Below are positions 6,001 to 51,500 of a stretch of DNA of 64,000 nt, piece after piece. Below the pieces are notes generated by a model, which saw only the letters and a list, made by a program, of their open reading frames with translations, was not told the DNA's origin and made no database searches. The number at the start of each line of letters is the position of its first letter. The first letter of the stretch is position 1. The stretch comes from Amoebophrya sp. A120 (Eukaryota; Protista; Dinoflagellata). A program made the position numbers and the translations under genes. The stretch spans positions 3,911,838 to 3,975,837 of the forward strand of contig CAJINV010000002.1 in the NCBI GenBank assembly GCA_905178155.1. The letters are read 5' to 3'.

Positions 6001-9000
6001 ATTATGTAAAACCTGCATGACAAGGCTATACTCTTTCAGACTGAGACATATTTGCACTTGATAGGGGAGTAAGAAAGCCAGCGCTTTCACCTCCACGTCC
6101 TCCGGCGTTTCACCGATCAAATATCACCACTTTGACGCCTTAGGAGCTGCTTCATCGGGGGGCGAAGATGGTTTTAGTAGTACTTCGGGAGGACCTGGTT
6201 CAGCATCATCATCTTCCCAAATGACGGTGGCATCACAACGTCCATCCCAAGTGCGCCGCACGGTCACGCGGACGTCGTCCGCTCCCGGGTTTTTAGAACA
6301 ACAGCAGAAGTTATCAACTGCAAAAATGTCTGGGTCTGGAAACTTGTGATGCAACGAAGGGAATAGGGAGCTCACTGTAATGCGCTGCCAAGCATGACAA
6401 GTTTTTTTCATGGTTCTGAGTTGCGTATTCCGCATGAGAAACTGCGTCTTTGCATGACAGGGAGTAGGAGCTCTTCGCGGCCACGCAATAAAGAGTTCAG
6501 AGCCATGCGAGGATAGCATGACAAATCTCGGAATCTTCCAGACCCAGACACTTTTGCATTTGATAGAAGTCATCTGCCACGGATACAACTCCGGTATCCT
6601 GTGCAAAAGTATCGTACTCGTACTAATTGCAGACATGCATTACAAATTTTTTTCTGAAGCTAAATCCGCATTACAAATTTTATTTCTCATGCTGAGGAAA
6701 TTTGTAATGCAATTTATACTAGTACGATACTTTTGCACAGGATATCCGGAAAGCGGCTACGAGTCCCCGCGGGAGCTGCGGCCGAGCCCGCAACAAATTG
6801 AGCAAGACCAGCGGCTGCTGCGGCGGGGGAGTTCGGGGCGGCTAGGTGGGAGTGGGAATACAGGGGGAGCTTCTAGTGCCGTGCCGAAGAAGAAGAAGTA
6901 CCTGCACAATGTGCAATTAAATCAGCAAATGGTGTTGACCCCCGGACAGCACAATTTGGATGAGCGGGAACACAGGAGTTTGTCACCCCCGCTGGAGCTT
7001 CCGGACGACGTCGTTATTCGGCCAATCGGTGGGGGGCGGAAGCCGAAGGGAATGGTAACCAATAACAACGTATTAGTACAACGACCGCAGGGCATTGGTG
7101 GACTGGCGTTGGCGGACCGTGGTGGCATCTTCGACATAGAAGAAGACGCAGATAATCTGGTGATCAAGCCTATCGGATCGCAGAAGGAGAAAACCAGCGC
7201 GCTTTTGTCCTCCTCGGGTTCTTCCGCTATTGGTACTGCTGTTCTTCCCACTAAAATCACGGTCGGCTTAAAGAAAGGCGACGTGGAAGGTACCACTACG
7301 GGCGAAAATAACGCTATCAATGTTTCAACATCGGATGAAAAAAAGCGACTTACAAGTAGTCCTGTAACGACTATGCCCCAAATTCCGCCGATGCCCTCGT
7401 TGAGTACGCTCGGGCCGGGATCTATCAAATGCAAAAATGTCTGGGTCTGGAAGAATACAAACTTGTGATGCGCATCTCAGAACACAGAAAAATCTCTCAT
7501 GCATAGGAAGCAAAAGTTGCCCACTTTCTCTCACCAAAATGGGGGAGTTGTCATGCGGATTCGGCATTGCGGAAGCCTCTCGAAACCTGTGATGCTAAAG
7601 CTTCCATGCCAGACCTTTTGTGTCATGCAAAAACAGCATGAGTCTTCCAGACCCAGACATTTTTACAATCCATAGGATCCTCGTCCGGCCTACAGGAGTC
7701 GCCTTCTACCAAGAATAGTGCTGGGTCGTCGGCAGCATCTTCGGCGCAGGATATTAATTCGCAGGAAAAAAAGAGGGAGGTAATTTTGATACCTGAACTA
7801 TCCGGAGACGGCTCTACTTCCTACCCGAGCACCGCAGATTCCGCCGCGCAGAAACAACAGAAGGCGAGCAAGAGTCCTCCGGGAACGACGAATAACGCGG
7901 CCTCTCCGCCCGCGACGTCCTCTCCGCCCGCGACGGCCTCTCTGGACAAACCGAATACGGACGACCCGGGACGAGCTTCTTCAGTTGTCCTGCCGTCCTC
8001 CCAGCAAGACAAGGACAACGCAGTTTTGATGCCCAACGATGACAATAAATCCGGCAAAGCAGCCGAACAAGTAGAGCCAGCGGAGGCCCAGAATCTGAAC
8101 ATCTTTAAAAAGTTGAATGCACCCCGCGGTCGCACCTCTGCAGCGGGGCCTACCGCCTTACTAAACTGAAAAATGTCTGCAGCTAAAAAAATCAAAATTT
8201 TTGTATCCTACATTTTCGGGCGCCTGCTTGTGTGTTTATTTTTTTTCACAATGAACAAAAATCAAGGAAATGGCTAGGCCAGGTATTCCGGCAAGGCCTC
8301 GGCGGACGAAGCAGAGGAGACAACTCAGCCACCGGGGGACTCGGTACGTCGGTATCGGTGGACGTCGTCCACCCGGGTCCGCAGTTGTAGTTCTTCAAGT
8401 TCTCACACTCCCTCCTGCTTCCTGACGATTTACCGAGTGCGTGCCTTGTTTGAGAATGGGTTGAATTTGCTGAAGAAGAGGCTCGCCTTTGGTTTAAACC
8501 TCGCGGCCTCCGAGGAGGTCGAAGAGGGGATGAGCTCAAGTTGCAGGCTTTTGCCTGCAAATTGAGCCCGATACAGGTCGGGGCCCTGCGAAAAGGGCGG
8601 CCGCAAATTGTCGCCCCGGAGGTCCGCGGCTCGGGACGACTCCGAAGAGGTGTCCAAGGACACCTCATCTGGAGGCCAATTTCGGAGGTGCAGACATTTT
8701 TGGCGGCGCAGACAAACACGAGCTATCAGCCTCACTTTCCCCCCCCCTCGCCAAAAACGTCTGCACCTCCACTTGGGGACCTCAGTGGAGAGGTGCAGAC
8801 GTTTTTGGCGGAGCCACGTTTTGCGTCACAAATCTGAACCCTCACAGCACGGCATTCTGCCGATTCAGGAGCTCAGATTTGTGATGCGGTCCAGAAAGCT
8901 GACCCAGAACGGGTCACAAGAAAAGGCCATTTGTAATGCGAGACCTGCATTACAAATTGCCACTTTTGGCGGGAGGGGCTTCACGCCCAAGTACCTGGCT

Positions 9001-12865: not shown

Positions 12866-15800
12866 ATGCCCCGTCAAATTACGCTCCTGGTGGGGCCGCC
12901 GGGGTGCGGCAAAACGACCGTTGCCCCCCTGTTAGCGGTATCAACTGTAAAAGTGTCTGGGTCTGGAAGAATTCATGTTTGCAGAATATATTAACTAGCA
13001 ATATGACACATATTAATCAATATGACATTTGGCAACGACAACGCTCCGAAACCCAAAAAAAGTAGCAATCTCATATTGTTATACTGTCATATTGTCATAT
13101 AGCATATTGCTCATGAGGGCCTCGCGCATGAAAATTGGGGCCGTCCGAGCTGCTTGCGGACTATACGGCCACTAGGACCGTGCGCGCCGTTGTGCAGTTG
13201 TTCGTGCAGATACCGCGCAGATACCCACTAGGCGCCTCCTAGGCTTCTCTCCCGAGCATGGTGGCAACGCCCTACAGCGTTGGGCGCACTCCTCGCGCGG
13301 TATTGCTGGCACAGGCACTGTCTCTGCCGGTAGCGGCCCGACTGCGAAGTCATGCACTAGGCTGTCGCTGGCACAGCATCATCGCACCTTGCTTTTTCGG
13401 GAACTATTCCCGCGCCCGACCACCTGGCTAAGTAGCTTTGTGCTAATGATAGTCTTGCTGTTTATGAGGGTAGCGCATCTCGTAATCACAGCAAAACTAT
13501 GCCAAGCCACACTGATTTTTGAGCAGTTTCCGTGTGTTGGTCTCCTAGGAGGCCCGCGGCGACGAATGGGCAGCCGGGGCGAAGACTTTTCTTCGTAAAG
13601 CAGCAACAGGGTGACCGACGGTGAGGCTATCGACCGCCCGGGGCGTTTTCGCCAACGAATTAGGCGGGGAGCGAAGATGTCCTGCCACGGCATGCGACAA
13701 ACGCTGCGCGTCAGGTCATCTCCCGGTCCCCGAAGCCGATGACTCCGGTCATATTGCTCAAAAATCCGCGGTCATATTGACATATTGTAATATTGTCATA
13801 TGTCATATTGTGAAAAGTGCCCGAATTTTGCTAGTTAATATATTCTGTGTTTGTCATGCTTGTCTGGCATGACTCTTAGTCATGCACGTTACCCAAGAGC
13901 TCCGTTTTTCTGTGATGCAGAAGCGCAGTTTGTCATGCAGAATAGGCAACACCTAGGAGCTCAGAAACTTGTCATGCTGAGCCAGCATTTGTAGTCTCAT
14001 CATGAGACGCTACCCAGCATCACAAGTTTCCAGACCCAGACATTTTTGCATTTGATAAGCGGAAATGTTTGACCGACCACTGCTGGAGTTGGAGAAGCTG
14101 ATCCAGAAGGAAATCGCCACGGGGTCAGAATCCGGGCAGTACCTGAAGCTCTGCAAGCTGCAAAACCGAACACCAGACGACGTGACGCTCATGAACCTGT
14201 TCCGAAACGAAATCTTAAACAACTGTCCCCTCGGCTGCTTCCTCTGTGACTACCCAGTCACGCTGTCACAAGCGCAGGCGCTGGATAGGTACAGATGAAA
14301 TAGTGTTTTAGGATTTTGCTTTAGTAAGTTGTCCTCCTGCATAGAACATTGGGGAAAGCGTAAGTATTGCTGCGCAGCGCGATTGATGCGCATCTGATGT
14401 TTATGCCAGTCGCAGTCTTGGACCTCGTCTGTCATGCGCCAATCCCAATCCACATTATGTGAAAACGAAAACGCTTTGTTCCACCACCACCTCCACGCAG
14501 GTTTTTGATCGGTTCCGGCGACAGGCAATCGCTGAAGGTGATCAACCTGACCGCAACGGACGAGGTGTGCGAAGCGAGACTACGGGAAAGATGGGTGCAC
14601 TTGCCAAGTGGGAGGGTTTACAACAAGGTCAGTTTCCCGCCCAGCAGTATGGCGTCCGAAGAACCGGCGATGCTGGACGATGTCAGTGGGGAGCCCTTGA
14701 TCCAGATGGAAAAGGACGACAAACTAGTGATCCCGAAAGAGCTATCCTCTGCAAAAGTATCGTACTCGTACTAATGGCTTTTATGCATGACAAATTTTTT
14801 TCTTAAGTGAAATCCGCATTACGAATTTCATTTGTAATGCTAAGTCAATTTGTATGGCAATTTCTGCTAGTAGTAGTACGATGCTTTTGCAATCCATAAG
14901 AGCTCTTCAAGTACCATTTGGGCTGCGAGCCACAGTTGAACCACTTCGGCAGATACGAAAAAGTCGACTGCCCAGCGGAAAAATCCGTCAAGGACATCGT
15001 ATACATAGAGAAATTGGGATTATTTTTGTGTGATTTGCGTTGCATGTTGCAGCGTCAGGAACAAATAGGAGGATGTTTTGTGCACATGATGCAAAATCTT
15101 CAACGAAGTTTTTGAACTTTATCTTCTTTACCCCTACTCAGGTAACCGAGTGCGCCTTCATCCTGGTAAACTCCACCTTCATATCGATTGCACCTATGGC
15201 TGCTGCGTCTGGAAAGTTGTAATGCTAGAAGTGAACGAGAACGATAGAAGCACTGCAATACGCAGCCAAGCGTGACAAATTTTTGGTCAGCTTTGTGTTG
15301 CGTATTAATTTCGTTTGGCAAGCTGCATTGTTGCATGACAGGCAAGCGGGCCTTTTCGTGCGCATGCATCACAGTGGCTCGAGCTCGAGGCATGTCCGAC
15401 ATGCATGACAAATCTAGCAAGCTTCCAGACCCAGACTACATATTTGCATTTGATACTTCGCAAGACAGCTGACCTTCGCCGAGCGAAACGCCGAAGCCAT
15501 GGGCAACGCGCCGCTGCCGATAGTATCGGACGCACCGGTATCAAATGTAAAAATGTCTGGGTCTGGAAGAATGCGCGATTTGTCATGCAGCTTTTCCATG
15601 ACCCATGAGTTCTGGAATGCAGGACCTAGCATGACAGATTCTGTGCGATCTCTCTCATGCCTATCCTGCATGAGAAACTCCCTCCCGACTTGGTCAAAAC
15701 TGGACGACTTTTGGTAATCATGCAACACAGATTTTTGCATGCTTCAGATTTAGCATGACAAGTTGCATTCTTCCAGACCCAGACATTTTTACATTTGATA

Positions 15801-21100: not shown

Positions 21101-23678
21101 ATCGCGAAAGAGCAAACCAACGAGAACAGCCGGCACTGGAAGCAACTTTTGCTAGAATCCGAGTTTTTCAAGTCCCGCATTTTCCGCGCGCAGCAGAATC
21201 TGAAAAATCTCCGGGCGAAAAACCAGGTGAACGCGAAGGAGGTGTTGGCTCTTACGCATGAGAAAAAAGCATCTTCGCACTAAGGAGCACCAATTGCATA
21301 TACAAACTTTTTCAGGCTGTTGAAAGACATCACAATGTGCCATACTAGATCAGCATCACCAGGTAGCGCAAGACATTTGTCATGCTGTACTACTGCAGTT
21401 AGCACGATATTGCGATGATTTTCCATAGGATAACGCTTCGGAGTAAACAGTACTCGGAGGAAATGGAAGTCGAGGGGATCTACGCAAACGCGGAGGTGGT
21501 CGGCGAGAGCGACCGACAAAGGGCGCGGAACAACTTTAACTTGGAAGAGGAGCAGCAGGCCTTTTCGTTGAAACTGTCAGACGAAAACGAGAAGTTGGGG
21601 AAAATGAAGGAGTTCGTCTTGCAGGAAAAATTGCGGCTCCAGGAAGCAGAGGACTTGGTGTTCAACGGATCTTACGCAAGTGTAGAAAGTTTTTCAAGTG
21701 TAATATCGCTGTCGCTGTAATTTTAATTTGCCATGCAGATTCAGGTTCAGATACGCAGGGCCCGCATCTGTAGTCCTGCATGCGATGCCGCTATAGTACG
21801 ATCTCGATATTACGAGTCCAACTTTTGCACTGGATAGATCTACTGGAGTGTCATCAAGCGCCACAACTACGAGTACTACAGCGAACAATGCAGAAAATAA
21901 CCTCCTCCAGCAAACTTATGCATTGCAAAAGTATCGTAATCGTACAAATGCATTACAAATTTCCTCAGCGTAAGAAATAAAGTTTGTAATGCTGATTTGC
22001 CTCAAGAAAAAAATTTCTAATGCGTGATTGCAATACCAATACGAGCGCGATACTTTTGCACAGGATAGAACTTCTCTCCTAGCGATTTCGAACCTTCTCG
22101 AGGAGATCAAAAACGCGGGGACGTTGTATGATCTGCTCAAACGTTACAATCTCAAACGTTCCAATAGAATCTGGGATGTGTCTTGCATATATGAGCATGA
22201 CAGACTCGCAGACCATTCCACTTTCTGCAGCACAGATTTCGGCACATTTTTGTAGTGCGGTTTGGGGCTCCGGAACTTGTCATGCGCAGTCCTATGAGAA
22301 TTGGCTAGATCATGCACCTCTTGCATCACAGATTTCCAAATTCTATTGCAACGTTTGAGATTGTATCGTTTGAGCAGGTCATACGTTGGAACGGGTGGTC
22401 GAGCTGGAGAACTGCGCGCGGTTTCTGTACTGGAAACTGCTCCACTTGGAGAAAGCGACGCGGAACGCAAATCGGTTGACGGAATTTCAACTCCGGGAGC
22501 AACAGCAGCAACAGCAAAATGACATCCTGAAAACGAAAGACAAGGACCCGCTGTCCGCACGGGCGAGGCGAAAGCAGACAGGATGGAATTTGCAGGAGCG
22601 GCTTTTTGGAGGCGATCCCGTTGGGGGAAGTAGTACAACTGGGAAGAAGTTTTTGAAGCTGAAGCCCTCCGCAGTTCCTCCGGTACCGAAAACGGTGCAG
22701 GACGTAATTGGAGTGAACGTCCAGGAAATTGTCGCGAACCATCGGAGTGCAGCTCCTTCGTCAAGGCTGCGCGCACCAGGACCAGGTTCGGATCAAAGCG
22801 GCACGAGAAGCGCACCGACTGGTGGTGCAGCGAACAATGCAAGCAAAAGTAGTATCGCAAACAACAGTAACTCCAAACGCATGGAGGATTGCATTGCGGA
22901 GGCGCTGAGACAGCACAACGTCGAGCAAGCCCGGATGTTGAAGCAATTGTGGCGGGAGAAGGAGACGAAGGAAAAGCAGCTGAAGGCGGAAAAGGAGAGA
23001 CAGGTAAGTACGTATTGTGGTGCGTTTGCCAGCATGAGATAAGTGAGGTCTTGTACAAGTTTTGCATGAGAAAAAGCTGTAAACATCCCTTTAAATAAAA
23101 CCTGTCAGGAGCAAGAAGCCGCGACCGCGCGTGCGAAGAAGGAGGAGGAGGCCCGACTGGAGCAGGAGCGGATTAACGCGGGCAAATCGGAGTTGGACGC
23201 CGCCTTTTTGGAAAACGTGAACGGGAAGTCCATGTTTGGCGTGAAATTCCACTCGCAAAACGTGAACCCAAACACCATGGTGTCGTCCTCTGCGAGTGGG
23301 AATGTTGTGATGGAGGAACAGCAAGAACAGCAGCAAGTTTCATTCCCCTCAGGAGGTGGTGGACCCGTACTACCCGACTTCAGTAACAACGTCAAAAATC
23401 TCACCGTTGGCAGCGCGGCGAGCTTCCTGCCGGGCGACCAGAAACTCCAGCTTACCCCTCGAGGGGCGGGCTCCTCGTCGGTACAAAACACGATCCGGGG
23501 GCCCCAGGACTTGAACAGTTACAGTCGGAATCTGCATGCGAGGATGAACAACTACAACGACCCAGTTTTCGCGGACGGGACGAGTGCGAATTATGAACAA
23601 CCGGAGGATTTGGAAGATAAGATACGGCACCCGCAGAAATACGTGCCGCAAATTCTGGTGGAGCTGCCAGATGATTGA
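18152..23678 (+). CDS. FHA-domain protein with coiled-coil and low-complexity regions
   Basis: FHA motifs TIGRDPQNDLVL..ISRFHA..DKGSANGTFVN. Introners 18838-19094, 20920-21078, 21253-21432, 21673-21836, 21917-22067, 22127-22383; GT-AG intron 23004-23108; stop 23676-23678. Confidence 0.85.
22127..22383. mobile_element. Introner, family G (TIR TATGATCTGCTCAAACGTTACAATCTCAAACGTT)
   Basis: TSD cgttg/cgttg, frame restored (GTL|ERVVELE). Confidence 0.85.
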
Positions 23679-27379: not shown

Positions 27380-30300
27380 ATGGGCATCCTTGAGAAAATT
27401 GCCGAGATTGAGGCCGAAATGGCCCGCACCCAGAAAAACAAGGCGACAGAATACCATTTGGGGCTTCTCCGGGGGATATCAAATGCAAAAGTGTCTGGGT
27501 CTGGAAGAATGCGCGATTTGTCATGCAGCTTTTCCATGACCCATGAGGTCTGGAATGCAGGACCTAGCATGACAGATTCTGCGCGACCTCTCTCATGCCT
27601 ATCCTGCATGAGAAACTCCCTGGCGACTTGGTCAAAACTGGACGACTTTGGGTAATCATGCAACACAGATTTTTGCATGCTCCAGATTTAGCACGACAAG
27701 TTGCAGTCTTCCAGACCCAGACATTTTGACATTTGATAGGGGAAGCTCGCAAAGCTGAAGACCCAGCTCCTCGAACCCTCTAAATCCGGCGGCACGCACG
27801 CGGGCTTCGAAGTGGGGAGGTACGGAGACGCGCGGGTGGCGATCATGGGTTTTCCCTCGGTCGGAAAATCCTCCCTGCTCGCGGAGCTTACCGGGGTAAA
27901 GTCCGAGGTTGCCGCGTATCAACTGTAAAAATGTCTGGGTCTGGAAGAATTCACGTTTGTCATGCTTGTCTGGCATGACTCTTAAATCTGTCATGCATGT
28001 TACCCAAGAGCTCCGTTTTTCTGTGATGCAGAAGCGCAGTTTGTCATGCAGAATAGGCAACACCTAGGAGCTCAGAAACTTGCCATGCTGAGCCAGCATT
28101 TGTAGCGTCATCATGAGACGCCACCCAGCATCACAAGTTTCCAGACCCAGACATTTTTACAGTTGATACCGCGTACGAATTTACCACGTTGACCTGCATC
28201 CCCGGGGTGATTTACCACAACGACGCAAAGATCCAGCTGCTCGATCTTCCCGGAATCATCGACGGGGCGGCGCAGGGGCGGGGCCGCGGCAGGCAGGTGA
28301 TTTCCACGGCGAAGTCCGCGGATTTGATTCTAGTAGTGCTCTATCAAATGCAAAAAAGTCTGGGTCTGGGAAGTTGCGAGATTTGTCATGCTACTCCGGC
28401 ACGACTTTGAACTCTATGTTGCGTCACCGCAAGGAGCTCCTCTTGCCTGTCATGCAAAAACGCAGTTTCATCTCATGCGGAGTACGCAACTCAGAACCAA
28501 GGAAAAACTTGTCATGCTTGGCAGCGCATTACAGTGTCGTGTGCTCACTATTCCCTTCCTTGCATCACAAGCTTCCATACCCAGACATTTTTGCAGTTGA
28601 TATGCTCGATGCGACCAAGGACGACAGTCAGAAAAAGCGGTTAGAGGCGGAGATGGAATCCGTTGGCATTCGGTTGAACAAAACGCCGCCGAACATAAAG
28701 GTGACGAAGAAGCTATCTTTTGCAAGAACGTCCCCGTCCCCAGCCCGGAGTCAAGATGGCGACTGTGCTACAGAAAGCAGCAAGTTTTGGCTGTTGCGCA
28801 TGACAAGTTTGGGTCTCTGGTGTAGTCGTGGCTGGCTAGTGAAGCCACAACAGAAATGCAGCGCCTCATCCTGATTCGAGCATGACAAAGTCCCAGGCAG
28901 CATAAGAAAATCAAAATGCTCCTCATGGGGTTGCGCATGAGAAACATTTTAGGGATGCCATTTTGCATGACAACTCCGGGCTGGGGGCGTTTTTGCACAG
29001 GATAGAAGCCGGCCGGGGGGGTCCGGATCAACGCCAGTTGCAAGCTATCCTGTGCAAAAGTATCGTACTCGTATCGCAATCATGCATTACAAATTTTTTT
29101 CTAAAGGTAAATCCACATTACAAATTTTATTTCTCATGCTGAGGAAATTTGTAATGCATTTATACGAGTACGATACTTTTGCAATCCATACAAGCGGAGT
29201 CAGCTTATGCATGGCAAATATTGGTCTGGGTCTGGACGACCTGCAGGGAAGCAGACATTTGGCATGCAGTTTTTGCATCTGCAAGAAAGATTGGAATGTG
29301 CACAGAGCATGACAAACTCTGGGACACCAGCTCTTCTAAGCCGGGTCTGCATGAGAAATCGACCCACTCCGGGACAGGCAGAAATCGGATAAGTATCTTT
29401 TGCTGACTCTCCAACACAGATTTTCGCCCGTTCCAGAATCCGCATTACAAGTTTGCGCCCTTCCAGAGGACCCAGACATAATATTGCATTGCATAAAGCT
29501 CGACGATAAGTTGATCGAGGGACTGTTGCGGGAATACAGAATATTCAATGCGGATGTGATCATAAGGGAGGACGCTAGTGCAGAGGATTTTATCGACGTT
29601 TTGGAGGGAAATCGGAAATACGTATTTTACATTTTTGTTGAAGCTCACCTGATTTTTACCCCACGATTTTTTTGTCATGCGCGGCTAGATCGATGAGGAT
29701 TCGACTTTCACTTTCTCATGCCCATATGCTGCGTACTGATACATAGTACAACACTTCTACGAAACAAAAACTTCTATCAAAGGTCCGGTGTGTCTATTGT
29801 TACAACAAAATCGACATGCTCTCCGTCGAGCAGATAGAGGCCTTGGCCCGGCTCCCGCACTCGCACGTAATGAGCTGTAATTTGAAGCTCAACCTCGACC
29901 GACTGAAGGATAGAATATGGGAGGAATTGAGTATGGTCCGGGTGTACACGAAAAAGAAGGGGCAATTTCCGGAATTCAGCAACCCGCTTGTGATAACACC
30001 ACAAAGAGGAACGAAAGAATGCAATGTGGAAAACGCGGTATGATACATAGTTTTTGACAAGATGAGGAGTTCTTTATCTCCTGTACTATTTTCATGAACT
30101 CGTTTTTCTATATAGAACTGTCGGACAGTGAAGATGCAAGTATTTATCAGGACTACATCACTGCGTCAGCATGACGAAGAAGTTGCAGAGCCTCTAAAAA
30201 CAGCACACCTCTTATGCATGATCAAAAGCACGCTCACGCATGAAAATGACATTGAAATTGATAATCAACGGACCAAACATCAACTAACGGTACGTACATT

Positions 30301-31129: not shown

Positions 31130-32799
31130 TGAGCCGTACTGCTGGTGTGAGAAGTTGTTGTAAGTAAGTACTACTGGGAGGTCGGCGTGGTCGAGGTCGT
31201 CGGCCTGAGGTGACGAAATTGGAAAACGATGAAATTGTGAACCATTTTCATTTTTTCCTGTGTGATCTTCATGGACATTAACCGAGACGACGCAGAGCCG
31301 AGCTTCATCCTTCTGCTGTGAACTATGTGTAAAAAGTCGTACTATCATTGTGTACATCGTCAACTCACGACGCACCATGGTCCAGCATCGCATGATTAGG
31401 GGCGCGCAACCTCGTCATGAAGCTTCTGGGTAAAAACAGTAGAGATGTTGATACAACTTGAGTAGTTTGAATCTGTTCTACTTGTGCAGTTCCCTGACGG
31501 TCGTGTAAGGAGGTGTCCTCGTGCCAGGAGGTGGTAGCACGTACTACTGGTACAACAGGTTTTAGTGACAGGCACGACTTTGATGATGCCATTTCTAGTT
31601 GAAAACTTATCTGTCGATATTAGGCGGTCCGTCGATCAGTACGGGCCCCCGTCCGATAGATTCAATTGTCCAATTCTATATCTAATGAAGAATTAGAATG
31701 TCCATGTCGGTCGTTGTTGCTGTACCAATCGGACTTGCATCTTCTCGGTTTGTTAACTGAAAATGATTCATGCTGTTGCTGATTTATCAGGTCAATTTCG
31801 GTGCCTGAATAATTAAAGAAGATGAATACTCGTGGTGCGGCAGCGGCGTGGTCTGGTTCTAGATTTCTGAATCATGATGTCGGTTGCGGTTTTCCTCAAC
31901 AAGAATCCAATCGGTTCTTGATGTTCGACTCCAATCGGTAATAGCGGGCCGATAGAAGTTGTACTCCGACTTATAGTCAACATATTGGCGTCATGTTTTG
32001 TCGGATCCCACGACGCTAGCATTGCTCTAGTACTCTGATCGGTGGAAGATGAAACTGCTTATAATTATGTGAGTCCCAAAAGTGCCAGCATGTTGATTTT
32101 TGGCATCTTCATCGACTTCGAGTATCACAATCATTAATCGCAATAATTATGGGGCACCAGCAGGCGTCTTCAGATGTTCCCGAAAACTTTTCTCGCGAAA
32201 TCAAGGTATAATTATTCCCCACAACTGTACTAAAAAAAAATACTACTAATTATCCTGCAATAAGATAGATCTTCTTCTCACAGTACATACAACCAACAGA
32301 CATAAAAAAATTGAAAATAATATGGGTCCTCAGGGTCGTGGTTACACTTACAATCGCGCAAGCCGGGTGGTCGTTTGCGTGGTCTTCTACGCGACATTGG
32401 GACCGCGCCCTCACTGGGCAACAAGTCTTTTGTCGTCTCGTGAACACCACAAGCACGGGGCGTGCGAGGGTACAACTTGCAACGCCGCGTGTACACATAC
32501 TAGAATATGTCAGAAGCAGGTCGCGCTCACGCAGTTGGTTTTGGACCCGATCTTTGGAGGAACTACCGTATGATTCACAAAAAAAGAGGACCCATCTTCC
32601 CTATCTTCCAAGTTGTTGTGCAAAACATGCATATACGAAAGTCCTGTGTCGCTGTTGTGTGTGATGCAAAAAATGATGGATGGGGAGTCTGTTTTTTTTT
32701 TTCTGTGGATACTTATTACGCCGCGGATGTGTTCGCACGCGAAGATGAGCTACAGGGTCAAGAAAAAAACGGAACAAATGCTGTTGGTGCTTCGAACAA

Positions 32800-35700
32800 G
32801 AGGATGAACAGCACGACTTCTCCCAGTATTGCAGCGACGCTAGACGCAATGAGCTGGAGCGGCGTGTTGATGCCGGAGAAGCTTTCGCTCGCCTCCGGTC
32901 ACTATCAACTGCAAATATGTCTTGGTCGGGAAAGAATGAGATTTGTGTTGCTTTCTGTCGATCACACAAAAATGTGTATTCTTGCAAGAGAGGCAAAAGT
33001 AGACACTCAGATTCTTGCCACCCGGAGAGGGCACTTCTCATGCTGGATAGGTATGAGAAAAGCTTTGCGAAAGCTGTGATGCTACAGCATGCATCACAGG
33101 CATCGGGAGCCATGTACAATTTGCATGACAAACTCCCCAAACTTTGTTCCAAGCCCAGACACTTTTTGCCATGCATAGTCACCTTGCGCCAGGCGGTCAT
33201 TGCTTGTTCACAAGGGCGGCCGGCGGAACGAAGATCCTGGCAGGCGGGCGCACCGTATCGTAAGGAAAAATCCCCCCTCTCCATATCGAAAAGGCACGCC
33301 TCAGAGAATTTGTCATGCTGATTTGTGACGACCTCGACCACAAATCGCGTCTGTCTTGCAAGAAAGCAACGGCATTGGCTTCGCTCCATTATGCAGGCGG
33401 TTGGTAGAAATGTTGTTGGGCCTACAGCATAGACGTTCCGCATGCTAAGCGCCTAGGCCAAAGCCTCATCCCTACATTGACATGATATGGGCCTGCGGTC
33501 CTCTACTGCAAGACAAATCCGATCTGTGCACGCAAATCCAGCATGAGAAGTTTTGTTTTGATGTGCTGGGGAGGAGGGATTTTTCATTTTGATACACCGA
33601 ACGCGTTGTCGGGACTTGGGAAACTGGGTTTTCTGTGCCGAGACTTTGCAATGGTGATCAGAGTATGCATTGCAAATTATATGTCTGGGTCTGGAAACTT
33701 GTGATGCTAATTTATGAATTGTGGGGACACTACAATAAGCAGCCACGCATGACAAGTTTCTGGGCTCCTATGTGTTTCGCTTTCCGCATGACAAACTACA
33801 TTTTTCTTGCAAGACAGGCAAGAGGGTCTTTTCCTGCTCACGCATTACAGGTTCAAGAGTCAACATGTGAGACAAACATGACAAACCTGCATTCTTCCAG
33901 ACCCAGACATATTTGCATCTGCTTACTCGCGCTACGCGAGGGAGTTTGATGTGATTGAACGTGCGGTATTCCAATGAAAAATGCCCACACCCCTGAACTT
34001 GGGAGCATTTGTATTGCAAACCTTTCCAAGTGAAACACTCGCCTTCTTGCATATCTTAGCATCACATGCTGAATAGGTCAAATTTGTGTTGCAAAGAAGC
34101 TCAACAGTAGCCGGGTCTGTTATGCAAAAGATGCCTTGCGCACCTAGATTCTGCATCAGAAAGGCTCATAGTCCTGTCATGCAAGACAAAGATCTTGCTC
34201 TTGCATTTGGAAACTTTGCATGAGAAACTTTTGCGAATCCGAATTCCGGGGTGGGGGCATTTTTCATTGGAATACGCGGTCCTCATGAAGAAGCAGACTA
34301 TTCCACCTGCGGCTCCTCACGAACTGCGCGTTGCCGGAACAACAAGCACGGAAACGAATGAAAGGAACGAACCCAATATTGAAAGGAAAAATCTCCCCTC
34401 CCCATATCGAAAAGGTTTGTTTCCGAAAATTTGTGTTGCTGATTTGAGACCACAAATCATGTCTGTCTTGCAAGAAGACCAGTGCAGCCGGTTCCGCGCC
34501 ATTATGGAAGTGATTTGGCATGCTGTTGGGCCTAGGGGACAGCCGTTTGCAATGCTGAACAACAAGACCCAAACGCCCCCGCCTAGGCTGCGGATCTGGC
34601 TGCGAAGCCTTACTGCAAGACTGCGCGCATTTGTGTGCAGAAATCCAGCATCAGAAACTTCGTCTCGATATGGGGAGGGGGGATTTTTCCGTACGATACC
34701 CAACAAAAAACGTCTACCCGGTGTGGCCTACTTGCTGCTGACGGGCGACGGGGAAGCCTTTGACCAAGCGGCCCTGTGGCGGCAGTACTTCCGAACGTGT
34801 GACCCCACCCGTGCCACGGCCAATCTGTACGTGCACACCTACAAAAAAACGTTTGACCCCGAAACCCTGACGGTGAGCGGCGCTGTGGATGAGAAGGCAA
34901 AAGCCTGGAAAAACCTGTTCGACACCGAACCGGGGCTCGGGTCGGTCCACTTTGTTCCCCGCATCCACACCGCGTGGGGCGAGCTGGTGCCGGTCATGTG
35001 GTGGCTGGTTGTGAATGCATTGCAAGAGGACCACGGCGGCGGTAAAAACGAACAGTTTGTCTTTCTCAGCGAGGGACACGTACCACTGAAAAACTGCACA
35101 TTCGTGCACGAGGTATCGCAAGAAAAAACTGTTTCACTGTGAACTTGTGATGCAGAGATGAACGAAGCACCAAGGTGTTTGTCTTGCTACACCTGCATAG
35201 AGCATTGGAGTTCCAGCCGTGTTTTCCCCTATGGGAAATGCGCGCATGGCAAGTTTTCCGCGCCATGTGTAGCAAACTTGTGATGCAGATATTGCACAAT
35301 CATCACAGTGAAACAGTTTTTCGTGGGATACGAGGAATTGCTGGAACAACGAGAAAAAAAAGCGGCATTCGGCCTGAAAAAACAAAAGCAAGAGCAGGAA
35401 CTGCAAGCGCAATCAGGATCAGCTTTGCAGTATCCTGAGTAAAAATGTCCCCACACCAGAGTCAAGATTGGAAATCCGCTAGACAAATCAGCCACCTCTG
35501 GTTGTTTCGCATGACAAGCTCCTTATCCTCGTAGTGTAATCCTGTTTAGCTAGTTGCGAAGCGTCACAGATGTAGAATATCATGCTGAGTCTAGCATCAC
35601 AAATTCCAAAACAGGATTAGAAAATGGCTCTCATGGTTCTCCGCATGAGAAACTTTTTTGGCATGCACATTTGCAGGACAACTCTGGGGTGGGGACATTT

Positions 35701-38700
35701 TTACTCAGGATATGCAGCAAGCGTCGAAAAGCGGGTTCCTGGAAGCGGACCAGCACGGCCCGGGCCGCGGGGGGGAGACGTTGGCCAAAAATTCATCTTC
35801 CGCGTCCGCAACCGGAACCGGAACTGGACCCGTATGCATTGCAAAAGTATCGTACTCGTAGTAATTGCAGTCCTGCATGGCAAATCTGATTGTGATTCCA
35901 TAGCTCATTCACCATTACAAATACCATTTTTCCTTCTGGAAAAATTTGTAATGCTATTTAAACTATAACTAGTACGATACTTCTTGTGCAATGCATAACC
36001 CGCCCGTAATGACGATGTTGATCTGAAGGAAGTTGACGAGGAACCGCAGGTATCAAATGCAAAAACGTCTGGGTCTGGAAGATTCTGAGACTTGTCATGC
36101 ATGTTTTGCATGACCCAGGATTGTGTGTGATGCATGCCCTACCATCACAGACTTTTGGAGCCCTTCCTGATGCCTACTGCGCATGACAAACGCGCTCCCC
36201 GCGTAGCACGAACTAGACTCCTCTTGCTGGTCATGCAATACAGAATTTTTTAGAGTCCAGAGTTAGCATCACAAGTTCCAACCTTCCAGACCCAGACACT
36301 TTTGCATTTGATAACAGGTCGAAGAAGTTTCAAGGACCAGCAGCAAAGTGTGCATGGTGCCCGAGCAAGCGGTTGAGACGATGGATCCCGGCACGGAGAG
36401 TGGCTGCATATTTGTGCAGTCGCTCGAGTTATCAAATGTAAAAATGTCTGGGTCTGGAAGAATGCGCGATTTGTCATGCAGCTTTTCCATGACCCATGAG
36501 GTCTGGAATGCAGGACCTAGGATGACAGATTCTTTGCGATCTCTCTCATGCCTATCCTGCATGACAAACTCCCTCCCGACTTGGTCAAAACTGGACGACT
36601 TTTGAGAATCATGCAACACAGCTTTTTGCATGCTTGAGATTTAGCATGACAAGTTGCAATCTTCCAGACCCAGACATTTTTACATTTGATACGAGTCCCA
36701 AGTGCCGCGCCATCACCAGTGGGGCACGTTGTCGCGCCCGGACGCGGAACTTTTCAAGAAGTACATCTTGCTGGGCTTAAACCTGTACTTCGCAAACTTG
36801 GTGCATCAAAAGGTATTACAAATCATGCATACTTGCATTGCCTTGGCATAGGAAGTATTTTGTTTGCTGTGCTAGTATATTGCAAGCAATTCGTGTTCAG
36901 CGCCAGGTCGTTGAAAGCAATGCGCCTCCAAGAGAAGGGGTCGCCCAGCAGCTGCCACACTCTAGCCTTTCGGAATTGCGTTCCCAAGGTTTGCCGGAAA
37001 TCCTGGGAGCACATTTCGGCAAGGCCCCCACGTCGGCTTTGTGCTCTGGCCGGCAGTAGGTCTGAAGTCCTCGCGAAAAATCATCCGACGTCGGGGAGAT
37101 AAAGAAATGCGCCCCTGGGATTTTCGCCGCGTCGAGACCTGGGATCATAGTTCTGCAAAGCCCCCTCGTAAGATGATGTTGCGCGGGTTTTTCTGTGTTT
37201 CAAGGTCAGAACACAAACTCGAGTAGCACTCTCGTGCTCTGGCTTGCAGAACTGTGCTCCTAAGATTTGCTGACATCGAACTCAAGTCCGATTTGTGGTT
37301 TGATCGGCAATGCCTACGCAGGTGAGTTACAGATATTGGCTCGCAGGATTTCCGCCGCATCGCGAAATTCTTGACGCAGCGAAGATCCTCGGAAATAATT
37401 TCTGTAAGTTACTTACCTGCGTAAGATTTGTCTTCTCACTGGTAATACCGATCTGGGCACAAATCTTATGCAGGAAACTTACAGAGATTAGTTCCCGGGA
37501 TTTGCGTGCTGCGTCTCCAATCGCCTCACTTGGACACGAGGATCATCAGTGTGTCCAAGTGTGGCGAGATCCGAGATCAGGGTGTCCAAGTGTGTCCAAG
37601 TGTGTCCAAGCTCACATCCGAGAACTTCGCGGATGTGAGCTGTCAGAGAACTTTCACACGCAAAGTGCCAAAGTTTGCCCCCCTGCTCGTGAAAGTTCGA
37701 TCCACGTGTCCGAACGAGGCGATTGTAGAAAAAAAGCGGAAATCCTGGGAACCAATTTCTGTAAGTCGCGTGCGTAGGATTTGCACTCAGGTCGCGATTA
37801 CCGGTCGAAACGCAGATCCTACGCAACCTACTTACTTACAGAAATTAGTTCCCAGGATCCCACATCCGAGAATTCCTCGGATGTCAGCTCCCATCCGGGA
37901 AGTTCGCGGAAGTGAGCTGCCAGAGACCTTTCACACGCAAAGGGCCGAACTTTGGCGCCCTGCTCGTGAAAGTTCGATCCGCGTGTCCAAATGAGGTGAC
38001 TGCAGAAAAAACACGGAAATCCTGGGAACTAATTGCTGTAAGTCGCGTGCGTAGGGCGTGTAGTCAGACCGGGACTACCGGTCGAAACGTAGAGCCTGCG
38101 CACCTGCTTCAAAATTTTTGAAAACCGAAGCTTTTAGGAACTGCTCTGGGAACTAATTTCTGAAAGCTCTAACTTAAACCTGTACTTCGCAAACTTGGTG
38201 CATCAAAAGGTGGGCACCACCACGTACGACGCGGCCAACATTGGCGCGAGCGATGAATTCATTTTCGGTTCCACCCTGCTGATCGCGAACATGATTCAGC
38301 AGAGAAAAACCTTCGAGTCCTTCTACAACGTGTCCGAGACGTATGGATGTTGTGTGAGGATTGAAATCGACAAAGTTGAAATTATAACTTGTAATTCATA
38401 AAGTGAATGAAAGTTGTAACCCAGATTTTTCCAAGTGGCGCATGACAAATTTGGTTAGATCCGAAATCCAGTTTGTCATGCTGTTTGGGTCGTAAGGAAG
38501 ACGCCTTTTGTCATGCTACTTTCGCGGCTCAGTTTCTACCCCTCAACAGGCTTACAATCTGCCTCACTTGCCTACTCTGCAAGACAGGCGCTTTGTGGGC
38601 TGCATTTCATGCATGACAAACTATTTCAACTTTAACGATTTCAATCCTGACACTTCCATAATACGAACGCGAAAGCCGGAGTCGTGCAGGTCTCTTCGCG

Positions 38701-42573: not shown

Positions 42574-45500
42574 ATGCAACACCTGTGGGCCCGTTGCAGC
42601 GAGCATTTGACGAGGACAACTTCAACTACATTGCCGAGTAACTACATCAACGATTGCAGCTGCAGCTCTTTCGACAACTCACACGGAGCTGCAGTCGTGG
42701 AAGTAGAAACAAGAACTTCCTCTCCTTCACTATCATCTTTCTTTACCTGCGGAGCAACGGGTGGTCGTACTACAGCGACAACCAGAGACGAAGAACAGCC
42801 CCCCCGGCGACGTCCAGCTGGAAGTAGAGATCCTCGGATAAAAATTCGGGATGAAGCTGCTCGTGCTGAGAATCATTCCCTTTCTTTTTCCGACTGTGGT
42901 TCTTCATCAGCCTCCGAAGACGAAGAAAATCAGCACGAGTTTTTGGTGGTAGAGAAAACAAATAGAACTTCCACTTTCACGTCGGGAAAGGAACTACAAG
43001 CCACGGGAGGTCGTGGTCATTCATCATCATCCCGCCGCGACGAGAGCAGGAGGAACCGGTGGTTTTTCAATTTCGACAACAACACTACAGGTACAACTGC
43101 TACAGGACCACCTCATCATCATCATCAAGAAGATTCTCACCTTTCCTTTGATGTAGGTCAAGGACACAGCACTTGTTCTCGTCGTGCTCAAAATTATCCT
43201 AAAACCTTTTCCCCGCCAAGCCGTCGGTTACTACGCCCGGCGAATTATTTGCAGCGGATTTTAAGAATAGCTTCTTCCAATAAAAAGACCACGGCGAGGA
43301 GGACCATGCTGCAAGGTGGAGCATCAAACCAAAATACTGCCGCGCCGCCTGGCGGCGCAGGACCAGGCGCGACGCAGCAGTACAACACGCGAAGACGGCG
43401 GCATTCGGTGGACGGGCGGGGAACCAGTGAAAAGTTGATGACGAAGATCAAGAACGAGTATCCTGTGTAAAAGCGTCCCCACGACCCCAGAGTTGTCATA
43501 CAACTCTGCATGCCAAATCCAAAAAGAAAAAAGTTTTTCATGCGGAGCCCCATGAGAAGCATCTTCTAGTTGTCGTGTTTTGGGAATTTGTGATGCTATA
43601 ATCAGCATTATATGCTAGATCTGTGATGCTTCTGAACTACCTCAACAGGATTTTTACACTACGAGGACAAACCTGTCATGCGAAACAACCAAAGCTGGCT
43701 AATTTGTCTAGCAGATTCCCCATCTTGACTCTGACTCTGGTGACGTTTTTACACAGGATAACGAGACGAATTTATTGATCAAGAAATTCAAGGAGTTAAA
43801 ACCACTAGCAGACCGGCACTGGCGGGGTAGTAGTAGTGGAGTACCATCATCTGGTCAACAACATCAAAGCGAGACTGCGAACAATACTGCTTCTTCTTCC
43901 ACAGCTAGTGAAAACAATAAGACCGCCAACAAACAAAATCTGGACAGTCTCGAGCTCGGCACACTGAAACTAGAGTTGAAGCTATCCAAGAGAAAAACGT
44001 TGTAGGTGTAACTTTTTTGGAGGAACAGCATCACAAATTTGTCTGGCATGACAGCAAAGACCTGTCCTGCGCAGATAGTAAGTGAAAACGCTCTTCAATG
44101 GACCCCACGACGCATGCCAAGCATGACAGACGCAATCATCTTGCATGTTGCGCATCACAAATTTACACGAACAACGTCTTTTTCTTGAATAGGAGCGGCT
44201 GCAGCAAGACTGTTCCACCGTGGTGGATTTGATTCAGGTGCTGGACGCGGGTCAGAATTTACGCCGGTGGGTATTGAGAGGAAAAATCCCCCCTCTCCAT
44301 ATCGAAATGGAAATCTGTGATGCGGGATTTGTGTACACAAATCGACTTGTAATGCTAGAACGCCGAGAGACGCAGCTGTGGCCTCGTTTGCAGGCAATTT
44401 GTCGTGCTGTTTCCCACTTCCAGCTGCCCCCTGTCATGCTGAAGATGCAAGGCTTTCCCACGCCAACCAGCACTACAGTCCGCATCTTTTCCCTTCTAGC
44501 ATGACAAACGTGGCCACAAATCTGCATCACAAGTTTCTAGTTTGAGTATGGGGCGGTGGGGGGATTTTCCCTTTTGATAGTGGGCTGAAGCGCACATGTT
44601 GATGATCTCCGTTTTGGCCAAAAGATTTCACGCGCAATTGGAACAACAACAGCAACAGTATCAAAGAAAAAAAGTTCGTCACGATCACTCATGCGCATTT
44701 TTGCAATACAAAAGTGTTTGTCATGCGTAAAAATGCATCACAGCCCAACTTCATTAGGGATTTCCCTAGTGTTTCTGCAGTACAAGGAAAATGTGTGATG
44801 CTAAGAAAATTTGTAATGCAAAACCTGCAAGTTAGTGACTGTGACAAACTTTTTTCTCTCCATATGCAGCAGGCGTTGTCTAGTACCAGCGCAACAACTA
44901 CGGGAGCAGGTGGACAGACATCTACTAATGCCGGCACTTCCGGTATGGATGTGTCAGGTTTGAAATCGTCAAAGTTGAAATAGTTTGTCATGCATAAAAC
45001 GGATACCAGTATAGGCCTGCAGTTTGTAGTCGGTGCGTGACGAATTTTCCCGGTCCTGGAAGCGAGTCTGTCATTCGGTTTAGGGCAAAAGAGCTGCCTT
45101 CTGTCATGCTAGTCAGCAGTCCAACTTTTGACCCTTCCCAGGACTATGATCTGCCTTCCGTGCGTCCTCTGCAATAGAGTCACTTTTTGTATCGCAAACT
45201 ATGCATGACAAATCATTTTAACTCTGACGATTTCAATCCTGGCACCCCCATATCCGGAGAGCCGAAGAAACCCTTTGTCGCGACCAAGTACTGCGAAGCC
45301 AGTAGTGAGCTGCTCCTCGTTATCAACTGCAAATATGTAGTCTGGGTCTGGAAACTTGTAATGCTAAAAAAGTGGATGATAGCCGGACTGCAATACGCAG
45401 CCAAACATGACAAATTTTTGAGCTGTGATGTGTTGCGTATTCCGCATGAGAAACAACGTTTTTGCTCAACGACGACGACGATGACAGATAGGAGAACCGT

Positions 45501-48500: not shown

Positions 48501-51500
48501 ACGGATGTATCGCAAGAAAAAACTGTTTCACTGTGAACTTGTGATGCATAGAATGGAACACAGAACTATTTGTCTTGCTACACCTGCAAGGCATTGGATT
48601 TTTAAGCGTGTTTTCCCTTGGAAAGCGCGCATGGCAAATTTTCTGTGGCATGTGTAGCAAACTTGTAATGCGGATCTTGCAAAACCATCACAGTGAAACA
48701 GTTTTTTCGTGGGATAGGACGCACAGCAACTGTATTTGGACGAGTTGCGGGTGTACATGCTGGAGTTGATGCCGAAACTTTTTCCAAGGAGCATCACACT
48801 AGGTATCAAATGTAAAAATGTCTGGGTCTGGAAACTTGTGATGCTGGGTGGCGTGTCATGATGAGGCTAGAAATGCTGGCTCAGCATGACGAGTTTCTGA
48901 GCTCCTAGGTGAAGCCTATTCTGCATGACAAACTGCGCTTCTGCATCACAGAAAAACGGAGCTCTATGGGTAACGTGCACGACAGATTTAAGAGTCATGC
49001 CAGACAAGCATGACAAACATGAATTCTTCCAGACCCAGACATTTTTACAATTGATACTAGGTAAGAAGTGATTATCCACGCCGCTTTTCTTCCATTTTTT
49101 GTGTTTGTCATGCAGATCCACGAGTAGAATATGGGTTTGGGTACTACCATGACTATGCGCTCGGTCTTTTATTACCACGCAGTAAAACCACCAGATTCAG
49201 ATTCACTTTCACAACCAAGCATAATGAATTACCAGGCGGCTCGTCGTCCCTGCTCACCTTCGGTCCGTATCACATGCAAATATGTCTGGGTCTGGAAATT
49301 CAAATTTGTGATGCTCAACTATTTGGATAAGACTGACGCTCTCAAGTGCAGCCAAGCATGACAAATGTACTTGACGCCGTCTGATGCGTAGCACGCATTA
49401 CAAACTGCGTTTTTGCAGGACGAAAAAGTACTAGTGCCTCTCTTGCTGGCTTTGCAACGCAGATTTTTCAGGAATGCAAGACATGCAACACAAGTTCCAC
49501 TTTTCCAGACCCAGACATACATTTTTGCAATGCATAGCCCGTTGCACCGTGCGATTTTGGAATCCGACACGGAATCTATCCTCTGCCAGATCTATCAAAA
49601 GGAAAAATCCCCCCTCCCCATATCGAAATGGAAATCTGTGATGCGGGATTTGTGTACACAAATCGGCTTTCTCTTGCAGTAGAGGATTGCAGGCAGATAC
49701 AAAGCGGGAGGAGGGGCGTCTTTGTGTAGGCGCCTAGCAAGGCAGGCATGTCCTCCGTAGGCCATAAAGCATCACAAATTGCCTGCAGAACGCGGCCAGG
49801 TTTTTGGAGTTGTCTCCTTGCAATACAGAGGCGATTTGTGGTCTCAGATTAGCATCGCAAATTTTCAGAAGTATCCCGCTTTGGTATGGGGAGGGGGGAT
49901 TTTTCCTCACGATAAGATCGCCATGATAGCCTCCGACGTGACCGGCCTGCAGGGGTATCCTGTGCACAAGTGTCATACTCGTAATAATTGCAAACAGGCA
50001 TTACAAATCTTGCTCTTAAGGTAAATCCGCATTACAAATTTTCTTTCTCATGCTGAGGAAATTTGTAATGCATTTATGCGAGTGCGATACTTCTGCAATG
50101 CATGAGGGCCAGCAGCCGACGACAAACTCGCTGAATTTGAACATTTCGAATTGTCCGAACCTGCTGGCATCTAGCGGGACCACGAGCAGTGGTTCAACAT
50201 CGGAGCTTATCAAATGTAAAAGTGTCTGGGTCTGGAAGAACGCAAGTTTGTCATGCTAATTTTGGATTCTAGAAAAATCTGTATTGCATGACCAGCAAGA
50301 GGAGCCCAGTTTCTGCTACGCGGGGAGGCCATTTGTCATGCGGAATAGGCATCAAGAAGCACTCAGAAAATCTGTGATGCCAGGGAATACATCACAGACG
50401 TCACGGGCCATGTAAAATCGGCATGACAAGTTCGCATTCTTCCAGACCCAGACATTTTTACATTTGATAGAGCTGGTTCTCCTTGCGCCGAGTAGCCAGG
50501 TGGATCACAACATCGAAAAGTGGAATATGGCGTTCTCAAATGTTTCATTCTCAACTGTTACATGATTTGTCATGCAAAATGACCACGATTCGCACGACGA
50601 TCAAGCTGCTTCGCATGACAAATCATCGAATGGCTAAACAGCATCTAAATCCGTCCCAAATTTGTGATGCAAGACTTGCAAGCTTTCCCCTTTCCCTATT
50701 GCTGGTTTTGCATGACAAATCCATGTAACAGTTGAGAATGTAACAGTTGAGAACGCCATACGGAAGTTGATTCTCCAGGAGTTTCTGGATGTCTTCGAAT
50801 TTCACGGAGTCAAGCTCCAGCCGGACTACCCGGAGTGCTACCACAGTACTAGCGGCGGGAAGGGTAGTACTAGTTTGAAGAAGAAGTCGATTTTCTGGGA
50901 ATTTCCAAAGCTCTACGAGTGCTACAAGAAGCTGGTGCACGAAATTTCCACGGGCGAAAAAGCGGAAAAAATCGGCGGCGGAGTGGTGGTATTGATTTAT
51001 TTCGTATACTACGTGTAAATCGTGAACGAGCTCCCGTTCCGCATGTAAGGTAGGTGTGAGTTTGGCTTTCGTGCTGAGTTGTGTAGCATGATGACCAGGT
51101 CCAGGTCGAGAAATTGGCTGTATGAAATGGAAACACCACCAAGCACCATCATGACAAATCAAATCTACGTATATTGAAAAATCCCCAGTCCACCGTGGCT
51201 TTGGTGGTGAAAGAGCTCGCGTTCGTCCACTCAGAAACCCCGTTGCATATTGCGGTCCGCTATCAAATGTAAAAATGTCTGGGTCTGGAAGAGTCGGGGC
51301 TTGTCATGCACATTTAGCATCACCCGTGAAGGTCTGTGATGCTGGTGCTAGCATCACAGATGTTTTGAGAGCTTCTTGATGCTAATTACGCATGAGAAAT
51401 GCCCTCTCCGCGTACCAAGGACTGACTCCTCTTGCTGCTCATGCAACACAGATATTTGTAGAATCCGCTGACAGCATTACAAGTTCGGATTCTTCCAGAC

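Follow-up and report, generated by a model that had tools for sequence, protein, structure and literature searches.

Introners of the Amoebophrya A120 type are described, in the available text of the two main accounts, as beginning with TAT followed by seven variable bases and an A-run, as flanked by direct repeats of 3–5 nt and as mostly spliced in a non-canonical manner (PMC7789003; PMC12130899). They occupy about 17 % of the genome and fall into 1,954 families, for which the accessible part of the original description found neither a transposase nor a U1 snRNA (PMC7789003). Most such families are placed in the superfamily 'TIR DNA, Unknown' in what is accessible of the later account (PMC12130899). 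The elements considered here share the ends, the direct repeats and the splicing of this type, and their family lengths of 148–149, 208–209, 252–261, 277–279, 305 and 319–322 bp match the table given there. As far as their available text goes, both papers treat the ends only, whereas an internal motif and a spacing rule were found here in the elements of the window, i.e. the whole stretch of 64,000 nucleotides that was analysed.

Related systems share single traits. The TIR/TSD introners of Aureococcus and Micromonas are, in the available text, likewise MITE-like and use target-duplication bases as splice sites, but they splice canonically, whereas 19 of the 22 joints listed here permit no GT-AG reading (PMC9860276). 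In the hAT superfamily, Hermes carries BED-bound subterminal AAG(T/C) sites in both orientations and at asymmetric ends (available text of PMC10368747), and hAT5 has the same 5-bp duplication (accessible part of PMC12730594). Unlike the hAT sites so described, the site found here is 9–12 bp long, is present throughout an element of 150–320 bp, follows a 10.5-bp lattice and spans families with different TIRs; in this comparison, subterminal repeats are present at the sequence level and a hAT transposase was not found in the window and the loci examined. IS3EU ends begin with TAY as here, but the duplications are 6 bp instead of 5 bp (PMC12730594, in the part available). No description of an internal motif or lattice in these elements was found in the literature as far as it was accessible, and figures, supplements or subscription papers may bear on this. 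The elements are already published, and it is well supported that the motif and its lattice are a new feature of known elements, akin to subterminal repeats.

The introner at 36051..36313 and its relatives

The window consists of eukaryotic coding DNA on the + strand which is broken up by short TAT…ATA elements with 5-bp direct repeats, and removal of each element together with one repeat restores reading frames, the longest of 1,072 codons. One host gene encodes a DRG/Rbg GTPase (E=5e-9); it extends over 27380-31584 and contains at least eight elements in addition to further introns without TIRs. By its TAT…ATA inverted ends, each 31 bp long with 2 mismatches between them, and its 5-bp duplication, the element at 36051..36313 is classed on sequence as an introner of the Amoebophrya A120 type (Table 1).

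Table 1 Features of the introner at 36051..36313 and of elements and introns compared with it
Feature	Coordinates	Strand	Remarks
Subfamily A1 (family A) introner	36051..36313	.	263 bp; interrupts a coding exon, gene on the + strand
Left terminal inverted repeat	36051..36081	+	TAT start, A-run at 11-15
Right terminal inverted repeat	36283..36313	-	
Left 5-bp target duplication copy	36046..36050	+	GCAGG; last G and first T of the element form a GT donor
Right target duplication copy	36314..36318	+	ACAGG, one mismatch; source of the AG acceptor
Segment absent from mRNA-like contigs (runs X3, X4)	36050..36317	+	268 nt (element + 5); with the cut at +3 it reads GT..AG
Motif site, exact TTGTCATGC	36092..36100	+	Element position 42
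Weak motif site	36108..36116	-	Position 58; inverted, 16 bp from site 42
Motif site, one mismatch	36125..36133	+	Position 75; direct, 33 bp from site 42
Decayed motif site	36142..36150	-	Position 92; subfamily consensus strong here
Exact motif site	36181..36189	-	Position 131
Overlapping inverted site pair	36228..36243	.	Positions 178 + and 185 -
Exact motif site	36266..36274	-	Position 216; right end 40 bp away
Family-A (A2) copy	27477..27738	.	Site scaffold as in 36051; in the DRG/Rbg GTPase gene
Family-A (A3, 252-bp type) copy	27917..28168	.	Same DRG/Rbg gene, opposite orientation; scaffold offset 10-11 bp
Family-A copy with foreign 866-bp element	12939..14057	.	Insertion (+6-bp duplication) separates the left end from the first motif
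Family-B example	35431..35712	.	About 279 bp; consensus sites single-orientation; omitted in RNA-like contigs
Family-C example	6595..6744	.	About 149 bp
Family-D example	35114..35330	.	About 209 bp (this copy 217); omitted in RNA-like contigs
Family-E example	50526..50760	.	About 235 bp
Family-F example	44944..45252	.	About 308 bp
Family-H example	34377..34698	.	About 322 bp; omitted in RNA-like contigs
RNA-supported GT-AG intron	14289..14500	+	No inverted ends; single strong site, at 14429
RNA-supported GT-AG intron	14999..15141	+	No clear inverted ends; site at 15035 (score 12.3)
RNA-supported GT-AG intron	23004..23108	+	No inverted ends; two sites on one strand, 23032 (weak) and 23064 (strong), spaced 32 bp
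RNA-skipped intron	32568-32715		Decayed inverted ends; at least one strong site
RNA-skipped intron	21251-21435		Decayed inverted ends; at least one strong site
RNA-skipped intron	21668-21836		Decayed inverted ends; at least one strong site

An exact search with the end of family A led to at least 136 metagenome loci (251 kb) without overlap with the window, a choice which skews them toward family A and intact ends. The 79 curated elements of the window and 265 elements from the metagenome loci listed form a set of 344, in which one insertion occurs twice; two window elements longer than 450 bp and one clipped by the window edge stand outside the family statistics. Thirteen families of 2–173 copies and 22 singles were distinguished. 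The family-weighted ends read T (0.99), A (0.99), T (1.00), with A at 0.62–0.93 in positions 11–15. Among 343 elements, the target duplication agrees at 5/5 positions in 269 and at 4/5 in 60, a match of at least 3/5 having been demanded by the finder used for the loci. The orientation of the elements relative to genes is unbiased (59/71 in family A and 19/20 in family C, from the window and 86 of 136 loci for which a strand was agreed).

At all 22 element joints among those listed (the best 15 per table), contigs of the runs X3, X4 and X6, which are marked 'RNA?' and none of which is on record as RNA, omit the element plus 5 nt. Since the joints lose exactly this length and three GT-AG introns are likewise dropped, these contigs behave as mRNA. 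In the raw-read run X10 only 121 partial reads aligned, and no joints were seen among them. A GT-AG reading is possible at three of the 22 listed joints, including that of 36051. Where the two duplication copies differ, at 33962-33966, 38337-38341 and 40528-40532, the exon retains at least the first one or two bases of the left copy, and the cut therefore falls within the duplication. The first-pass annotation had named an excision factor among the possible ligands of the motif; one acting on DNA is not supported, as the elements leave at the RNA level alongside ordinary GT-AG introns. Membership of IS3EU is excluded, because the skipped segment is the element plus 5 nt at all 22 listed joints and the duplication of IS3EU measures 6 bp.

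Several unusual structures were observed beside the regular copies. Two single family-B-like ends with motif arrays lie at 62236-62410 and 63650-63987, in GC-rich DNA outside predicted genes, and partner ends for them were not found in the window. The repeat-rich, GC-balanced region 36900-38130 contains several inverted repeats of another kind, in which the motif is absent. The foreign TIR element nested in the copy at 12939..14057 (12982-13847) has CAG ends and the 6-bp duplication TGTTTG, carries a subterminal repeat of its own (CAATATGAC-like), in several copies at both ends, and the main motif just once, in weak form, and its empty site is seen in one X4 contig and one X8 contig. A 1126-bp element at 8159-9284 has TAC ends, positions 11–21 identical to the family-A TIR and an apparent 4-bp duplication; internally it has a GC-rich hairpin and, at the centre, five motif sites, and its excision in silico restores the frame of the host. 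Further foreign insertions in family-A copies were noted in the loci (L026:571-1051, L043:1501-2472 and L068), the last of which continues into a frame of 415 amino acids without a Pfam match.

An autonomous element or transposase was not found in the 64-kb window and the at least 136 loci (251 kb). Long or unpaired family-A ends in the loci were considered as an autonomous partner and rejected, since they turned out to be nested foreign insertions, truncations or decayed ends. The TAC-ended element contains four ORFs without a Pfam match; a Pfam search with five ORFs, from L068 and this element, returned no families, and the TIR pattern had no matches in viral_contigs.

A motif common to families with different ends

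In the window, exact TTGTNATGC is found 181 times, compared with a mean of 2.85 and a maximum of 7 in 100 shuffles; 162 matches lie within the 79 curated elements (19,992 bp) and 18 in the remaining 44,008 bp, with densities of 8.4 per kb in elements and 0.9 outside. An exact copy is present in 318 of the 344 elements, and at least two copies at up to one mismatch in 341. GCATGA is the top 6-mer and occurs in at least half of the members of each of the 13 families; weighting by family gives a consensus of about WGCATVACARRT. The motif resembles the animal Sox2-Oct4 composite site and the RBFOX element, which we take to be a coincidence. That the 9-mer occurs in several copies across the TIR families, as had been claimed from the window, is thus borne out. 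Its presence in both orientations does not hold for every family: the consensuses of B1 and B2 (6/6 sites each) and of A4 (5/5) are single-orientation, and strong sites (PWM score of at least 12) are confined to one strand in 34 of 271 oriented copies. The scarcity claimed for exons and intergenic DNA was confirmed: the 9,154 exon bases with RNA support contain neither exact nor strong sites, and 12,628 intergenic or UTR bases no strong one.

After masking of TIRs and motifs, similarity survives in only 4 of 78 family pairs (D-L, H-M, I-G and I-M, z>4), so that the motif is a word which recurs inside otherwise unalignable interiors. A motif-like word also stands at TIR positions 4–12 in 28 of 86 ends of family C and 37 of 346 ends of family A. 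The idea that the motif is a repeated TIR core was rejected, as it applies to a part of the ends only (81 of 688 score at least 5 at positions 4–12).

Between subfamilies of family A, with sites set on the reference consensus and a PWM trained on all families, identity amounts to 94 % at GCA (995/1054) and 84 % at the other motif columns (1472/1750), compared with 55 % at the free position N (196/356) and 59 % in the spacers (4491/7618). The same contrast between motif and spacer is seen in families B, D and H, and the expectation that motif columns are more conserved than their neighbours is confirmed. When 242 copies are compared with their own consensus, substitutions reach 3.4 % at GCA, 6.2 % at the other motif positions, 15 % at the free position, 14 % in spacers and 7 % in TIRs.

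Spacing, helical phase and the time of selection

The site starts of 36051 (92-131-185-216) and of the A2 copy at 27477 (91-130-184-215) give the spacings 39-54-31, and those of the A3 copy at 27917 (41-72-105-125-164) give 31-33-20-39. The spacings reported by the first-pass annotation are therefore exact, although some of the sites behind them carry two mismatches. The three copies are homologues, with 193/263 and 176/263 identical positions; thus their shared spacing, taken alone, shows descent only, and the case for phasing rests on the comparison across families.

Direct pairs, weighted by family, peak at 31–33 bp, and at least 0.5 such pairs per copy occur in 10 of the 13 families, while 300 jitter nulls reach a maximum of 8. 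Inverted pairs peak at 16–17 and 46–50 bp (+ then -) and at 16 and 34 bp (- then +). The best period is 10.5 bp, with a score of 0.356 compared with 0.026 at 10.0, 0.055 at 11.0 and 0.117–0.213 at 10.1–10.2, and none of 500 jitter nulls reaches the observed lattice. This period, which had been proposed as spacing near multiples of a helical turn, persists without family A and without the 30–34 peak (0/300). The half-turn offset of the inverted pairs was picked after the data had been seen, and the result for same-strand pairs is therefore the clean test: with related families merged to nine groups no null out of 500 reaches the observed value, also without the 32-bp peak, and none out of 100 when periods of 8–21 are scanned. 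A first scan of same-strand pairs gave 0.33 for a 16-bp period and 0.37 for 10.5 bp, the latter being the best period once related families are merged. Not all spacings follow the rule. Those of 39 bp (3.7 turns), one of the values quoted originally, and of 18 bp lie off the lattice, phasing is weak in families G (0.02) and B (0.17), and the phase fades past 110 bp (same-strand, 69/500 nulls). In most families the first inward site lies 32–33 or 40–44 bp inside the end, in clusters about one turn apart.

The sizes of indels between sites had been expected to be non-random, which is the case among subfamilies but not among copies. Subfamilies of family A are offset by 0, 1 or 10–11 bp at shared sites, and the 262- and 252-bp types lie 10–11 bp apart at every shared internal site, a shift that may be a single event. 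Among 1,199 motif-to-motif intervals of individual copies, 1,037 are unchanged, 50 are shifted by 1 bp, 99 by 2–8 bp, 10 by 9–12 bp and three by more than that. Copies with phase-shifting indels are spliced exactly, and the copy at 12939-14057 is skipped exactly (1124 nt) even though its motif array lies 872 bp further from the left end. In view of these shifts and this insertion, it is not supported that resident copies require phasing. A 4-bp deletion shared by nine C1 copies disrupts the end distance.

Changes were divided into private and shared ones, labels which vary with sampling: substitutions number 235:100 in motifs and 975:784 in spacers (p=5e-7), and indels 169:16 for lengths of 2–8 nt and 71:19 for 1 nt (p=0.006). 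Private decay per site is 2.05 % in motifs, 2.2 % in TIRs, 2.35 % at the free position and 3.15 % in spacers. Pairwise mismatch between the two halves of the target duplication is 3.2 %, or about 1.6 % for each copy if the two halves evolve neutrally; private motif decay is not below this clock, yet it is below that of the spacers. A split by target-duplication mismatch did not separate the copies by age (spacer divergence 14.1 % vs 13.6 %). The private motif changes and indels, a decay near the duplication clock, exact splicing despite shifts and the unbiased orientation fit selection on the lineages that spread and not on resident introns. Redundancy of the sites could, in turn, hide selection for retaining at least one copy in place.

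Short insertions are mainly +3 and +6 and form a duplication plus one base in 70 of 116 cases of +3, while 13 of 38 insertions of +6 are a 5-bp duplication plus one. Such insertions resemble excision footprints and may have arisen in this way; in exons, those of +3 and +6 would preserve the frame and could hasten protein change.

A proposed shared mobilising complex and competing readings

The motif, present in 4–8 copies in all 13 families on a 10.5-bp lattice, probably serves a single mobilising complex, common to all families, as its binding site on double-stranded DNA; this would be either the DNA-binding domain of a transposase or a cofactor. Several subunits would sit on one helix face of the short element of 150–320 bp and bend or wrap it until the two TAT ends meet, and the element would then be inserted by cut-and-paste, duplicating 5 bp of the target. 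The binding of subterminal repeats by the BED domains of Hermes is a precedent (available text of PMC10368747). Copies without sites or phase would persist as introns and seldom seed new subfamilies, and splicing would rely on the ends (terminal hairpin and duplication) and not on the lattice. With one binding complex, families with divergent TIRs could share a single mobiliser. The unbiased gene orientation and the tolerated phase breaks count in favour of mobilisation; the weak phase of families B and G, the spacings of 39 and 18 bp and the shared C1 deletion count against it, as do the loss of phase past 110 bp and the motif in all three RNA-supported GT-AG introns without TIRs. The accessible text of PMC7789003 reports no autonomous element or transposase in A120 and argues against mobilisation by a transposase. 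Membership of the hAT superfamily would fit the 5-bp duplication, which is compatible with hAT5. Of the phased platform for one shared protein suggested originally, the shared motif, conserved columns and phase point to a protein on double-stranded DNA, with mobilisation favoured among its proposed roles, but the binding protein was not found in the window and the loci.

A mark of introns at the DNA level is an unlikely alternative, in which a host protein would bind the motif either way round and recruit a spliceosome lacking U1 during transcription; a single intact copy would suffice for an intron, and phasing would only aid binding. A U1 is undetected in Amoebophrya in the accessible part of PMC7789003, and all six RNA-supported non-family introns, three GT-AG introns without TIRs and three with decayed TIRs, contain a site scoring at least 12 (per-intron shuffles 1–13/200). 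Moreover, a site is present in 7 of 17 predicted non-family gaps of the window (0.4 expected), strong sites are absent from the exon and intergenic bases surveyed, and the exonic TAC-ended element has five sites where the CAG-ended one nested in an intron has a weak one. However, a strong site is present in just one of the 14 element-unlike gaps predicted in the loci, which are without RNA support and partly intergenic, and donor-like stretches with a site, a noisy proxy also without RNA support, are 3/40 in sense and 1/35 in antisense (p=0.62). Exact splicing survives the 872-bp displacement and further indels, constraint lies chiefly on inherited changes, and relics of old elements would yield an equal pattern. 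Such relics account for the sites in TIR-less introns at least as well as a splicing mark does. It is quite doubtful that a single host DNA-binding protein, in place of a recognisable transposase, reads the lattice both for mobilising hundreds of unrelated families and for marking these, together with some ordinary introns, for splicing independent of U1; if true, a transposon binding code would have been turned into an intron-definition code.

That the lattice positions a general chromatin protein, in a nucleosome-like or DVNP-like wrap apart from mobilisation, is very unlikely. Wrapped DNA would display helical periodicity, but the signal is a high-information 9–12-mer with no strong occurrence in the intergenic bases surveyed, 10.5 bp outscores 10.1–10.2, and the phase is freely lost in resident copies. 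Functionless descent of the motif from internal duplications in a common ancestor is highly improbable: the homology of family-A copies, the four related family pairs and the motif-like word in some TIRs agree with it, but it is already contradicted by the contrast between columns (84–94 % in the motif against 59 % in spacers and 55 % at N), 74 of 78 family pairs have no other similarity, and a neutral history would leave no 10.5-bp period. Equally remote is the folding of the intron for excision by inverted copies as stems of RNA or single-stranded DNA, since, although 36046-36318 folds (z=-7.7) into a TIR stem and local hairpins between sites 16–17 apart, of 181 inverted neighbours only 76 show pairing at the free position (42 %, where 34 % would be expected), family-B consensuses have no inverted partner, families keep sequence and not pairing, and the 11-bp period of A-form scores 0.055.

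Under binding by one mobilising complex, the motif helps to split mobilisation signals, in the interior, from splicing signals, at the ends. It offers a bait for pull-down and a signature for the autonomous partner and for the annotation of decayed introns. A shared phased motif would mean that the families depend on one protein.
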